Assembly: GCF_988243305.1 (NCBI RefSeq)
Contig: NZ_OZ547136.1
Length of the DNA: 64,000 nt
Strand: one strand, 5' to 3'
The notes under the pieces are model-generated. The model had not been told where the DNA came from. It did no database searches and saw only the letters and a list, made by a program, of their open reading frames with translations. The position numbers were made by a program, and so were the translations under genes. Below, piece after piece: positions 4,166-52,672 of this stretch (position 1 is its first letter; each line of letters opens with the position of its first letter).

Positions 4166-5173
<1,008 letters not shown>

Positions 5174-5809
5174 ATGCGTCTGACAGCAAAACAGGTGACA
5201 TGGCTGAAAGTTTGCCTGCATCTTGCCGGATTGTTGCCGTTTCTCTGGCTGGTCTGGGTGATTAATCACGGTGGACTGGGTGCCGATCCGGTGAAAGATA
5301 TTCAGCATTTTACCGGTCGCACTGCACTGAAATTTTTGCTGGCGACCTTGTTAATCACACCTCTGGCACGCTACGCAAAACAGCCGTTATTGATACGCAC
5401 TCGCCGCCTGTTAGGATTATGGTGCTTTGCCTGGGCGACACTGCATTTAACCAGTTACGCATTGCTGGAGCTGGGCGTGAATAATCTGGCGTTATTAGGT
5501 AAGGAGTTAATTACCCGGCCTTATTTAACGTTAGGAATTATCAGCTGGGTTATTTTGCTTGCTTTAGCGTTCACTTCAACCCAGTCGATGCAGCGAAAAC
5601 TCGGCAAACACTGGCAACAGTTGCATAACTTCGTCTATCTTGTCGCGATCCTGGCCCCAATACATTATCTGTGGTCAGTGAAGATTATTTCACCGCAGCC
5701 ACTCATCTACGCTGGGCTGGCTGTACTGCTTTTAGCCTTACGGTATAAGAAGTTGCTTTCCCTTTTCAACCGGTTACGCAAGCAGGCCCACAACAAATTA
5801 TCTCTATAA
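5174..5809 (+). CDS. msrQ: heme-binding membrane subunit of MsrPQ
   Basis: 211-aa polytopic membrane ORF starting immediately after msrP; matches recalled YedZ/MsrQ. Confidence 0.9.
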
Positions 5810-5840
5810 CTTCATATTGCCGACAAACTTCGCGTTATCC

Positions 5841-5873
5841 CGGCCGGATGCGGCGCGAGCTCCCTATCCGGCC
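5841..5873. repeat. REP-like palindromic unit
   Basis: GC-rich imperfect palindrome cggccggatgcggcg...ccctatccggcc just downstream of msrQ, resembling enterobacterial REP elements. Confidence 0.5.
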
Positions 5874-6011
5874 CACACAGATCGCATCAAGTTATGTTTC
5901 GTTTGTCATCAACCTTTCATCACCAGAATAATTTATTTTATTTCAATAAGATAGTTCAATACACCTGAGAATACCATGCTCTCATTTCCTAATGAGTTGT
6001 TGCATTTTTTC

Positions 6012-6032
6012 ATATGTTACAATATAACATTA
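6012..6032 (+). promoter_or_regulatory. Zur box (zinc uptake regulator operator) upstream of zinT
   Basis: Palindrome atgttacaatataacat matches the Zur consensus core (TGTTATA-N-TATAACA) about 35 bp upstream of the zinT start. Confidence 0.7.
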
Positions 6033-6066
6033 CACATCATGTACATTAACTCTGGAGGAAATTGTT

Positions 6067-6717
6067 TTGGCGATTCGTCTTCATAAACTGGCTGTTGCTT
6101 TAGGTGTCTTTATTGTTAGCGCTCCTGCCTTTTCGCATGGTCATCATTCTCATGGCAAACCCTTAACAGAGGTCGAACAAAAAGCTGCTAATGGTGTTTT
6201 TGATGATACCAATGTACAAAACCGAACGCTCAGTGACTGGGATGGAGTCTGGCAATCCGTTTACCCTTTACTGCAAAGTGGCAAACTTGATCCCGTCTTT
6301 CAGAAGAAAGCGGATGCAGATAAAACCAAAACATTTGCTGAAATTAAAGATTATTATCGCAAAGGTTATGCGACAGATATCGAAATGATTGGCATTGAGG
6401 ACGGCATTGTCGAATTCCATAGAAATAATGAAACAACATCCTGTAAATATGATTACGATGGATACAAAATACTCACCTATAAATCAGGCAAGAAAGGCGT
6501 TCGTTACTTATTCGAATGTAAAGATCCTGAAAGCAAAGCCCCTAAATATATACAATTTAGCGATCATATAATTGCACCACGAAAATCATCTCATTTTCAC
6601 ATTTTTATGGGTAATGATACCCAACAGTCTTTATTGAATGAAATGGAAAACTGGCCAACGTATTATCCCTATCAGTTGAGTAGCGAAGAAGTGGTCGAGG
6701 AGATGATGTCTCATTGA
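6067..6717 (+). CDS. zinT: periplasmic zinc/cadmium-binding protein
   Basis: 216-aa ORF with His-rich N-terminus after the signal peptide (HGHHSHG); TTG start as given by the ORF track. Confidence 0.88.
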
Positions 6718-6805
6718 TTTTTTTGCGCTGACTTCAGTTATTTAACAGAACAGTGCCTGGTAGTAACAACAATAATTTACCAAGACAAATAAGTAAGACA
6801 AACTC

Positions 6806-6838
6806 AGACACGCTCATACTTGAGTCGTGTCTTTTTTA
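6806..6838 (+). terminator. rho-independent terminator downstream of zinT
   Basis: Stem agacacg / cgtgtct followed by a T-run (ttttttatt). Confidence 0.55.
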
Positions 6839-7386
6839 TTATGTCTGTAGAAAAAAACTGCGAAAAAGGCGAACAATAAATACACAACTCAGCCATACAG
6901 ACTAGCAGCGCAAATGTTTCCAGGAGCAAGTCATCTGTCATGGTAAAACTAACCATAAATATAGGTTAATTTTGATGTTTAAACCTTTTTTACTTGTTAG
7001 TATGATACAAAGGCTTTCAAAAAAGCTGGGAAATTCAACAACTCTTGGAAATTATGGACTTTGTCCCGCAGCTTTAATCTGACGGCCGCGTTCCTTTTTT
7101 GGCTCAATTATTGACCCCTTCTCTACGCAACTTCAGTTCCCGCCAGCAACTTTGCGGCAGTTTCATAGGATCAATGTCTAAAAGAATAATGGTGACCGAT
7201 AAGAAAACGACTGAATAACTGTAGATTTTCGCTCGAAACCTTCCTGTCAGACCCATAGCGAATCAAGTGCTGAATGTCACAGTATCGAACAGAAAACAGT
7301 GACGATCTAACCCTTCAAGAATATTCTACGAATGTTCTGTTTAGGAAAAGCAAGGCGGGAAGTCGAGAGATAAGTCATTGATAAAG

Positions 7387-7476
7387 TGGCGGAGAGAGGG
7401 GGATTTGAACCCCCGGTAGAGTTGCCCCTACTCCGGTTTTCGAGACCGGTCCGTTCAGCCGCTCCGGCATCTCTCC
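7387..7476 (-). tRNA. serU: tRNA-Ser (anticodon CGA)
   Basis: 90-nt cloverleaf on the minus strand (GGAGAGATGCCGGAGCGGCTGAACGGACCGGTCTCGAAAACCGG...CCA) with long variable arm; anticodon loop CTCGAAA. Confidence 0.93.
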
Positions 7477-7569
7477 GTTCAGATGGTTGCCATGATGCCA
7501 GGAAATTTGGCATTTTAACAGTCCCTGTCCGTGCAATTTTGTTCAAGTGACGAGTTTGCGAGCAAAACG

Positions 7570-8367
7570 ATGATTAAGTGGCCCTGGAAAGTACAAGAAT
7601 CAGCACATCAAACTGCCCTTCCCTGGCAGGAAGCACTATCGATCCCCCTTTTAACGTGTCTGACAGAACAGGAACAAAGCAAATTGGTCGCTCTTGCCGA
7701 ACGTTTTTTACAGCAAAAACGGCTTGTTCCTTTACAGGGCTTTGAGCTGAATTCATTAAGAAGCTGCCGGATAGCACTTCTATTTTGCCTGCCCGTTCTG
7801 GAGTTAGGACTGGAATGGCTGGATGGTTTTCATGAAGTCTTAATTTATCCTGCGCCATTTGTGGTCGATGATGAATGGGAAGACGATATCGGTCTGGTGC
7901 ATAACCAACGTATTGTTCAGTCAGGTCAGAGCTGGCAGCAAGGGCCTATCGTTTTGAACTGGTTGGATATACAAGATTCTTTTGATGCTTCTGGTTTTAA
8001 CCTGATTATTCATGAAGTCGCTCATAAGCTGGACACCCGTAACGGCGATCGCGCCAGCGGAGTTCCCTTTATTTCGTTGCGTGAGGTTGCTGGCTGGGAA
8101 CACGATCTTCATGCTGCAATGAACAACATTCAGGAAGAAATCGAATTAGTTGGTGAGAATGCGGCGAGCATTGATGCTTATGCTGCCAGTGATCCTGCTG
8201 AATGTTTTGCCGTACTTTCTGAATATTTCTTTAGCGCCCCAGAACTTTTTGCTCCTCGTTTCCCTTCATTGTGGCAACGTTTCTGTCAATTTTATCAACA
8301 AGATCCTTTGCAGAGACTGCATCACGCTAATGATACAGACTCGTTTTCGGCGACGAATGTTCATTAA
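7570..8367 (+). CDS. mtfA: Mlc titration factor A (zinc-dependent peptidase fold)
   Basis: Start set at MIKWPWK (265 aa); HExxH-like motif (IHEVAHKLD). Confidence 0.85.
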
Positions 8368-8467
8368 TTAACAACTTTGCAGATTAATTAACCAATTGAA
8401 ATGGCTTATGAAATTTAGTGTTGACAGACAAGGTACCGCTAAGTAATATGCACCCCGTTCTCACGAT

Positions 8468-8543
8468 TCCTCTGTAGTTCAGTCGGTAGAACGGCGGACT
8501 GTTAATCCGTATGTCACTGGTTCGAGTCCAGTCAGAGGAGCCA
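8468..8543 (+). tRNA. asnT: tRNA-Asn (anticodon GTT); insertion site of the HPI
   Basis: 76-nt TCCTCTGTAGTTCAGTCGGTAGAACGGCGGACTGTTAATCC...GGAGCCA; identical to three further copies in this window. Confidence 0.95.
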
Positions 8544-8923
8544 ATTTTCTGTTTTCTTGCATCCTTGCGAATCTTTATCTGATGTTGATTCAACAGGTTA
8601 GTGTGAAAACTCTTCTCGGTGCATTTTGATTTTACCCTACGCATCGGGAAAAATTGGTGGTCAAATCTGGGGTCAGGTTAGTTCGATAATGGAGTGACCC
8701 CCATATATCCCTTACCGACGCAAAAATCCGCACCCTCAAGCCTTCTGATAAACCCTTTAAAGTCTCCGATTCTCACGGTCTGTATCTGCGGGTCAAGCCG
8801 GGTGGCTCCCGCCACTGGTATCTCAAATACCGTATTAGCGGTAAAGAATCCCGCATTGCGCTGGGTGCCTATCCAGCCATCTCCCTGTCTGATGCGCGAC
8901 AGCAACGTGAAGGTATCCGTAAA

Positions 8924-9967
8924 ATGCTGGCGCTGAATATCAACCCGGTACAGCAGCGGGCTGCTGTACGTGGCTCACGAACACCGGAGAAAGTTTTTAA
9001 AAACGTGGCGCTGGCGTGGCATAAAAGTAACAGGAAATGGTCGCAGAACACCGCCGACCGTCTGCTTGCCAGCCTGAACAATCACATCTTTCCGGTCATC
9101 GGGAACCTACCTGTATCAGAACTTAAACCCCGTCATTTCATTGACCTGCAGAAAGGGATCGAGGAAAAAGGTCTGCTGGAGGTTGCGTCCCGCACACGGC
9201 AGCACCTGAGTAACATAATACGCCATGCGGTCCATCAGGAGTTAATCGATACGAACCCTGCAGCAAACCTTGGCGGCGTGACCACACCTCCTGTCAGACG
9301 GCACTATCCTGCCCTGCCGCTGGAGCGGCTGCCTGAACTGCTTGAACGTATTGGGGCATATCATCAGGGCCGTGAACTGACCCGGCATGCCGTTCTGCTG
9401 ATGCTGCATGTGTTCATTCGCTCCAGTGAACTGCGTTTCGCCCGCTGGTCAGAGATTGATTTCACAAACCGAGTCTGGACGATACCCGCGACGCGAGAAC
9501 CCATTATTGGCGTGCATTATTCCGGCCGCGGGGCAAAAATGCGAATGCCGCATATCGTCCCCCTCTCAGAACAGTCCATCGCCATTCTGAAACAGATTAA
9601 GGATATCACCGGTAATAATGAACTGATCTTCCCCGGCGACCATAACCCGTATAAGCCAATGTGTGAAAACACGGTCAATAAGGCACTGCGGGTGATGGGT
9701 TACGACACGAAAAAGGATATCTGCGGTCACGGCTTCCGGGCAATGGCATGCAGTGCGCTGATGGAATCGGGTTTATGGGCAAAGGACGCAGTAGAACGCC
9801 AGATGAGTCATCAGGAGCGCAATACCGTGCGCATGGCTTATATTCATAAGGCAGAGCACCTGGAAGCCCGCAAAGCGATGATGCAGTGGTGGTCGGATTA
9901 TCTGGAAGCATGCCGAGAATCTTATGCACCGCCTTATACAATTGGTAAAAATAAGTTTATCCCATAG
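8924..9967 (+). CDS. int: P4-like tyrosine integrase of the HPI, possibly start-defective
   Basis: ATG-initiated ORF of 347 aa; the same frame continues upstream to 8690 encoding an integrase N-terminal arm domain (SLTDAKIRTLKPSDKPF...GSRHWYLKYRISGKESRIALGAYP) but with ATA where the start would be expected. Confidence 0.75.
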   Translation: MLALNINPVQQRAAVRGSRTPEKVFKNVALAWHKSNRKWSQNTADRLLASLNNHIFPVIGNLPVSELKPRHFIDLQKGIEEKGLLEVASRTRQHLSNIIRHAVHQELIDTNPAANLGGVTTPPVRRHYPALPLERLPELLERIGAYHQGRELTRHAVLLMLHVFIRSSELRFARWSEIDFTNRVWTIPATREPIIGVHYSGRGAKMRMPHIVPLSEQSIAILKQIKDITGNNELIFPGDHNPYKPMCENTVNKALRVMGYDTKKDICGHGFRAMACSALMESGLWAKDAVERQMSHQERNTVRMAYIHKAEHLEARKAMMQWWSDYLEACRESYAPPYTIGKNKFIP

Positions 9968-48364: not shown

Positions 48365-48440
48365 TGGCTCCTCTGACTGGACTCGAACCAGTGACATACG
48401 GATTAACAGTCCGCCGTTCTACCGACTGAACTACAGAGGA
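48365..48440 (-). tRNA. asnW: tRNA-Asn (anticodon GTT)
   Basis: Exact reverse complement of the 76-nt asnT sequence; gene name assigned from recalled K-12 order. Confidence 0.93.
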
Positions 48441-50188: not shown

Positions 50189-50264
50189 TCCTCTGTAGTT
50201 CAGTCGGTAGAACGGCGGACTGTTAATCCGTATGTCACTGGTTCGAGTCCAGTCAGAGGAGCCA
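50189..50264 (+). tRNA. asnU: tRNA-Asn (anticodon GTT)
   Basis: 76-nt sequence identical to asnT, followed by a terminator hairpin. Confidence 0.93.
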
Positions 50265-52596: not shown

Positions 52597-52672
52597 TCCT
52601 CTGTAGTTCAGTCGGTAGAACGGCGGACTGTTAATCCGTATGTCACTGGTTCGAGTCCAGTCAGAGGAGCCA
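52597..52672 (+). tRNA. asnV: tRNA-Asn (anticodon GTT)
   Basis: 76-nt sequence identical to asnT, followed by a terminator hairpin. Confidence 0.93.

Follow-up and report, generated by a model that had tools for sequence, protein, structure and literature searches.

A non-coding zinT–serU spacer without yodB, the common alternative allele of a dimorphic Escherichia coli locus

When a chromosome lacks a gene that E. coli K-12 carries, has the gene been lost, or was it never there? The question is raised by a 64,000-nucleotide stretch of DNA (the window), in which a preliminary description found no open reading frame (ORF) of meaningful length between zinT and the tRNA-Ser gene serU. K-12 was suggested, with low confidence, to carry yodB, a small cytochrome b561-like gene, in this interval; if so, yodB would be absent or fully decayed here. 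The analysis described below indicates that the interval is the yodB-less, non-coding spacer of a two-allele locus, in which yodB was most likely gained by K-12-type strains, and that the flank of serU would form one side of an empty phage attachment (att) site.

The zinT–serU interval and its K-12 counterpart

The intergenic interval is exactly 669 bp long (6718-7386). It is bounded on the left by zinT (6067-6717, plus strand), a 216-aa ORF for the metal-binding protein ZinT whose stop codon ends at 6717, and on the right by serU (7387-7476, minus strand), a tRNA-Ser(CGA) gene identified by ARAGORN and scored at 57 bits by the Rfam tRNA model, the 3′ end of which faces the interval. The zinT gene is 96.8% identical in nucleotide sequence to that of K-12 and is annotated as the same gene in the near-identical strain JE86-ST05, and the serU sequence is 100% identical to that of K-12. 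Upstream of zinT lie msrP (4169-5173, plus strand) and msrQ (5174-5809, plus strand), and serU is followed by mtfA, asnT (8468-8543), and an island integrase gene. The msrQ-zinT intergenic region contains a weak match to the Rfam family naRNA4 at 5832-5873 (22.5 bits; gathering score 59.5), which is probably a REP-type palindromic element.

The reported lack of a meaningful ORF was borne out, the longest ORF that overlaps the interval in the ORF list being 50 aa. The longest stop-free stretch is 58 codons, compared with 71 ± 17 when the interval is shuffled, so that the lack of ORFs is the expectation for random AT-rich DNA (GC content of 37-39%, against 52% for the whole window) and carries no signal in itself; the observation is true, yet unremarkable for non-coding DNA. 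Located between the convergent zinT and serU genes, it is non-coding spacer DNA of an ordinary kind, and represents a common yodB-less allele. The spacer comprises the rho-independent terminator of zinT, an AT-rich filler (6838-7240) that evolves at a roughly neutral rate, and the serU 3′ flank (7109-7386, best conserved at 7241-7386), which would constitute the chromosomal side of an attachment site for lambdoid phages that integrate at serU.

RNA folding revealed a 10-pair hairpin with one bulged base at 6806-6832, 88 nt past the end of zinT and followed by a T-run that extends to 6837. The fold of 6796-6846 has a predicted energy of -16.8 kcal/mol (z = -5.2), and none of 200 shuffled sequences was as stable. 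The segment 6806-6837 thus combines a stable hairpin with a T-run on the same strand past the stop codon, as is characteristic of a rho-independent terminator. A promoter and terminator consensus scan missed this real terminator, presumably as its stem contains a bulge. The hairpin is kept in K-12 and in E. albertii, and in the latter an A:U pair is replaced by G:C via changes on both arms, a compensatory substitution. Between the terminator and the start of the serU 3′ flank at 7109 lie about 270 bp of AT-rich, drifting DNA, including a non-coding segment common to both E. coli alleles (6940-7108, 94.1% identical to K-12), of which approximately 130 bp (6978-7108) has no counterpart in the alignment with E. 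albertii. Identity to K-12 over 6940-7240 is 94%, compared with 92-94% at the third codon positions of msrQ and zinT, and the filler (6838-7240) is consistent with roughly neutral drift.

Two K-12 references were used for comparison, a PGAP-annotated MG1655 derivative (locus L001) and the curated record NC_000913.3 (locus L004). In both, yodB (b1974, 531 bp, 176 aa, putative cytochrome b561) is the sole annotated feature between zinT and serU, in agreement with the gene order given in the preliminary description, and K-12 YodB scores 79.7 bits on Pfam PF01292 (prokaryotic cytochrome b561). The K-12 interval is 1,442 bp, versus 669 bp in the window. Pairwise BLAST revealed that homology to K-12 runs up to the stop codon of zinT and no further (window 6717, L001 2005), and that it restarts at window position 6940 (L001 3001). 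A 222-bp segment of the window (6718-6939, with breakpoints at 6717/6718 and 6939/6940) is therefore allelic to a 995-bp yodB segment of K-12 (L001 2006-3000), whereas the rest of the interval is homologous. The window shares with the K-12 zinT-yodB-serU locus (b1973-b1975) the flanking order msrP, msrQ, zinT ... serU, mtfA, asnT, the serU-proximal 447 bp of the interval at 95.3% identity, and the zinT terminator hairpin; it differs in having 222 unrelated bp in place of the 995 bp that include the 531-bp yodB. Apart from a 28-bp hairpin (window 6805-6832, L001 2098-2125), the two segments are not alike.

Searches for yodB itself were empty. A tBLASTn search of positions 6651-7400 with YodB returned scattered, chance-level matches, the best of which covered 12 aa on the opposite strand (E = 0.043); over the whole 64-kb window, the best match (E = 0.11) was likewise at chance level and lay outside the interval. 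A blastn comparison of the K-12 995-bp segment with the interval revealed nothing beyond the 28-bp terminator hairpin, and thus no yodB DNA remnant. A frameshifted remnant is ruled out by these two results, and the interval, having no similarity to YodB, is neither a yodB or cytochrome b561 (PF01292) gene nor a pseudogene of one. The gene is absent without trace, rather than frameshifted or decayed. The alignment and the tBLASTn search that the preliminary description had proposed thus uphold absence, and neither observation that it had named as contradicting it, a K-12 interval without a gene or a detectable frameshifted remnant, was made. Its alternative of decay, which implies a loss in this strain, was not supported, since the spacer of E. 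albertii is also yodB-less and colinear with that of the window (see below).

The two forms of the locus are both common. Among 5,426 complete E. coli genomes, the 222-bp segment was found in 2,271 (~42%) and the K-12 yodB segment in 3,114, and the full 669-bp interval was at least 80% covered in 2,281. The first two counts add up to 5,385 of the 5,426 genomes, as would be expected if the alleles exclude each other and a few dozen genomes have rearrangements of their own; the zinT-serU locus is dimorphic for the presence of yodB. The yodB-less form occurs in strains labelled ST131, ATCC 25922, and O2:K2:H1, and the yodB form in K-12, ATCC 8739, and O157:H7; going by the phylogroups that we take these strains to belong to, the yodB-less allele would presumably be that of B2-type lineages, and the yodB allele that of A/E-type lineages. 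Rare alleles considered as possible intermediates were rejected: that of HS-02 is a 43-bp deletion variant, that of EC2001 an IS903B-associated deletion, and that of G6/7 a yodB-less copy that has diverged and is interrupted by IS21.

The serU 3′ flank and phage attachment

Within the serU 3′ flank (7109-7386), a core at 7241-7386 is kept across Escherichia. It is 97.9% identical to K-12 and 84.5% identical to E. albertii, and a cryptic-clade Escherichia is 92.5% identical to the window over 7241-7400. Compared with E. albertii, the core is conserved beyond the third codon positions of zinT (74% identical), with z = 19.6 (here and below, z scores of alignments compare global-alignment scores with those of shuffled sequences, for each sub-block).

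A distant search of the interval against 50,697 phage records revealed that the end of the interval nearest serU is closely matched in the lambdoid phages ev099, PhiR70_1, and mEp332. The host-phage identity extends over 340 bp (7109-7448), made up of the 278-bp flank and the 3′-terminal 62 nt of serU (7387-7448), with 96.5% identity to ev099 (L094 3501-3840) and 96.2% to mEp332 (L093 2051-2388). The phage copies are ~96-97% identical to both E. coli alleles, and the homology stops abruptly at 7109. In the phages, the copy is located between xis-int plus cargo genes on one side and tail-fibre genes on the other, and the ev099 xis and int genes lie ~2.1 kb from the shared segment. A place between xis-int and the tail-fibre genes is the usual location of lambdoid attP. 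A partial prophage record, SerU-LTIIb (KU052038), on which no paper was found in the literature, contains in order a tail-fibre gene, a 62-nt serU fragment (pseudo-tRNA-Ser), the 447-bp flank, and yodB, which is the junction expected in a serU lysogen.

Judged by sequence, serU has the features of an attB site, namely phage identity that includes the tRNA 3′ end near an integrase gene, and the features of an occupied site in lysogens, in that a duplicated tRNA 3′ fragment flanks the prophage in KU052038. The flank at 7109-7386 would then form part of a putative att site. Copies of part of the interval were found at 6,023 places in 5,423 E. coli records, leaving about 600 extra part-copies, as expected for serU lysogens; the number fits frequent lysogeny across E. 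coli genomes, and integration of prophages at serU has been reported for STEC (PMC7067040). In the window, the serU 3′ end is present in one copy only, with no second copy found, and the attachment site is empty in this strain.

The locus resembles the tRNA att sites of phages and islands, in which attP contains the 3′ part of the tRNA gene: ev099, mEp332, and PhiR70_1 carry 62 nt of serU beside their integration module, and the SerU-LTIIb prophage is bordered by the 62-nt serU fragment. It differs in that the window site is unoccupied, and in that the identity runs 278 bp past the tRNA gene, to a total of 340 bp, which is much longer than the tens of bp usual for att identities. It is conceivable, though doubtful, that this length is functional, the shared DNA serving as a landing pad for RecA-dependent, integrase-independent integration and excision, and the flank being repeatedly overwritten by phage copies. 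Such overwriting, if real, would account for the conservation of 7241-7386 across Escherichia without coding capacity or RNA structure.

In E. coli FDAARGOS_1373 (L003 3001-4642), the junction with serU lies only 14 nt into its 3′ end and belongs to a second type of element, which encodes an integrase of its own; in this strain, the region from fliP through the middle of the interval is also deleted. The same 14-nt join, again with an integrase of the element's own, was observed in a cryptic-clade Escherichia (L005 5654-7204), and integrating elements of two or more kinds thus use serU.

Outgroups, the origin of yodB, and rival readings

An outgroup scan with ZinT as the query, restricted to one genome per species, returned 80 loci, with E. 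fergusonii, E. marmotae, and E. ruysiae absent from the returns. At none of these 80 loci, all outside E. coli, does a YodB homologue lie within 5 kb of zinT; only E. coli-type sequences have one. The one E. albertii genome has the order msrQ, zinT, a 567-bp spacer, serU, and mtfA, without yodB, and its spacer is colinear with the window form. BLAST blocks pair positions 94-135, 200-284, and 438-566 of the E. albertii spacer with positions 88-127, 189-272, and 540-668 of the window interval, and the second block crosses the 6939/6940 junction unbroken. Because the 222-bp part of the window is no more than ~60-66% identical to E. albertii, this colinearity is statistical rather than obvious, although significant in each sub-block: z is 9.7 for the left block and 5.2 when the hairpin is left out, 4.0 for 6846-6939, and 3.7 for 7109-7240. 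The 222 bp of the window align with K-12 via the hairpin only (z = 2.0 without the hairpin, and ~1 for 6846-6939). Approximately 95 bp (6846-6939) are thus common to the window and E. albertii and absent from K-12, and since E. albertii is both yodB-less and colinear across these 95 bp, the yodB-less state looks ancestral.

The cryptic-clade interval is rearranged, with a deletion of its own and an island in serU. Its candidacy as a minimal ancestral spacer was rejected, as pieces corresponding to window positions ~7132-7146 lie, by eye, beside the zinT stop codon; these remnants, in a locus where serU is also split by an island, are read as the result of a secondary deletion. By sequence comparison with one E. 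albertii genome and one cryptic-clade genome, on which the direction call rests, yodB in K-12-type strains is most likely a gain or replacement, and not a loss in the window's strain. The lineage of the window most likely never had yodB, and in K-12-type strains a yodB segment of ~870-995 bp would have replaced the ancestral DNA from the zinT stop codon or terminator to 6939. In the K-12 allele, the left 125 bp are strongly diverged; this could reflect two old haplotypes or introgression instead of a simple insertion, and is a hint of import from a distant source that already had yodB linked to the zinT terminator, although no donor of this kind turned up. Compared with K-12, zinT (6067-6717, against L001 1355-2005) is more diverged than mtfA, on the other side of serU, with 96.8% versus 98.4% overall identity and 92% versus 96% identity at third codon positions; a recombination tract that brought yodB could reach into zinT.

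The segment was probably acquired horizontally, possibly as prophage cargo. In a collection of 5.8 billion proteins, the identity of YodB homologues falls from 99% in E. coli to at most 77% in Citrobacter, Hafnia, and Salmonella, a gap that leaves no candidate YodB orthologues in sister Escherichia species. Citrobacter portucalensis (GCA_013345705.1, L085 4001-4540) encodes a YodB-like cytochrome b561, 76% identical to K-12 YodB, as prophage cargo between genes in the holin/lysozyme/spanin position and HNH/terminase genes; other YodB homologues are found in unrelated gene neighbourhoods. The closest homologue from outside E. coli thus sits exactly where lambdoid prophages carry cargo genes (“morons”), at the boundary of the lysis and packaging genes. 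Unlike such morons, the K-12 yodB segment has no surrounding phage genes. DNA comparisons of the K-12 yodB flanks with the yodB-like loci of Citrobacter and Salmonella showed similarity confined to the coding sequence, and the K-12 flank DNA had no match in the Citrobacter prophage, so that a prophage origin of yodB is suggestive at most. When plasmids were searched with YodB, the matches consisted of E. coli chromosomal records that had been misfiled and of homologues of no more than 48% identity. No paper on yodB together with zinT was found in the literature, in which yodB as a cytochrome b561 gene appears only in incidental mentions.

The opposite course of events, in which yodB was ancestral in E. 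coli and deleted in the window's lineage, so that the 222 bp are what was left after deletion and divergence, would agree with the majority status of K-12-type strains (3,114 of 5,426 genomes) and with the terminator hairpin common to both alleles, which makes the two left flanks homologous. It is nevertheless unlikely, as neither a protein nor a DNA remnant of yodB is detectable, no Escherichia-level YodB orthologue falls between 99% and 77% identity, and the 95 bp that K-12 lacks are shared, together with colinearity, by the window and E. albertii. A minimum of two further events would have to be assumed, namely a parallel loss or an ancestral polymorphism, and a loss of the 95 bp in K-12-type strains. 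The gain of yodB in K-12-type strains remains the preferred reading, and it is compatible with a rival account that concerns only the origin of the serU flank. In this account, the 278 bp are a fossil phage attP arm, left by an old and mostly deleted serU prophage, instead of host DNA captured by phages. The geometry of the shared segment is such that a crossover within it would leave the phage copy of the 278 bp beside an intact serU; the abrupt end of homology at 7109 agrees with this, as does the conservation of the core without RNA structure, which is expected for recombinase or IHF sites or for repeated overwriting. A fossil arm is a possibility, although not the favoured one: E. albertii has diverged but alignable DNA for 7109-7240 at the same position, for which vertical descent in the host is the simplest explanation, the near-equal identity of the phage copies to both alleles fits recent exchange in either direction, and no arm-type binding sites were identified in the 278 bp.

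Conservation of 7241-7386 above the level of neutral sites, the presence of several ORFs of 31-50 aa, and weak promoter-like matches at 6978-7006 and 7162-7190 could also be taken to mean that the interval encodes an unannotated small protein or small RNA, but this is very improbable. The conserved core contains a single ORF (7274-7381, 35 aa), which has lost its start codon in E. albertii, where ATG is changed to ATA, and which by inspection of the alignment differs at ~12 non-synonymous to 2 synonymous sites; for the remaining small ORFs, the corresponding DNA of E. albertii is either missing or cannot be aligned. With its start lost and its changes mostly non-synonymous, the core ORF was rejected as a small protein-coding gene. 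On the serU strand, 7241-7386 has no stable fold (z = +1.6, 192 of 200 shuffles folding at least as well). An Rfam scan of 5700-8700 (E ≤ 1) yielded only tRNAs above their gathering scores, the rest being sub-threshold noise. The best non-tRNA matches reached 25.7 bits (sX4, gathering score 70) and 40.9 bits (gathering score 68), and both overlap serU; no known small RNA family in the interval reaches its gathering score. Six promoter-like sites were counted in the interval, compared with 4.7 ± 2.0 expected, which is no enrichment over shuffles. Moreover, 6940-7240 drifts at about the synonymous rate, and neither PGAP nor the curated K-12 record has such a feature in the interval. A search of the interval for direct or inverted repeats, or a MITE, yielded only short, chance-level matches.

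Significance and the neighbouring Asn-tRNA island

The locus shows an ordinary polymorphism of an accessory gene, located at a hotspot for integration into a tRNA gene, and is of a kind that is already known. It matters little in itself, since yodB is an uncharacterised accessory paralogue of cytochrome b561, and public annotations already show which genomes carry it. The analysis corrects the direction of change, to a probable gain in K-12-type strains and not decay in this strain, and identifies the interval as the likely flank of the serU phage attachment site. It is also a reminder that the K-12 gene order is not an ancestral reference for other E. coli lineages. The 340-bp host-phage identity at serU is the sole mildly unusual feature, and a minor curiosity for researchers of integration sites.

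Beyond serU, the integrase frame beside asnT (8705-9967) is open for 420 codons and, in JE86-ST05, is followed by ybtS of the yersiniabactin island. No ATG, GTG, or TTG precedes position 8924, so the ORF list shows the integrase as only 347 aa; in a near-identical RefSeq strain it is annotated with an ATT start. The window contains four tRNA-Asn(GUU) genes (8468-8543, 48365-48440, 50189-50264, and 52597-52672), the first of which adjoins the island integrase gene and is thus parted from the other three by ~40 kb of island DNA.
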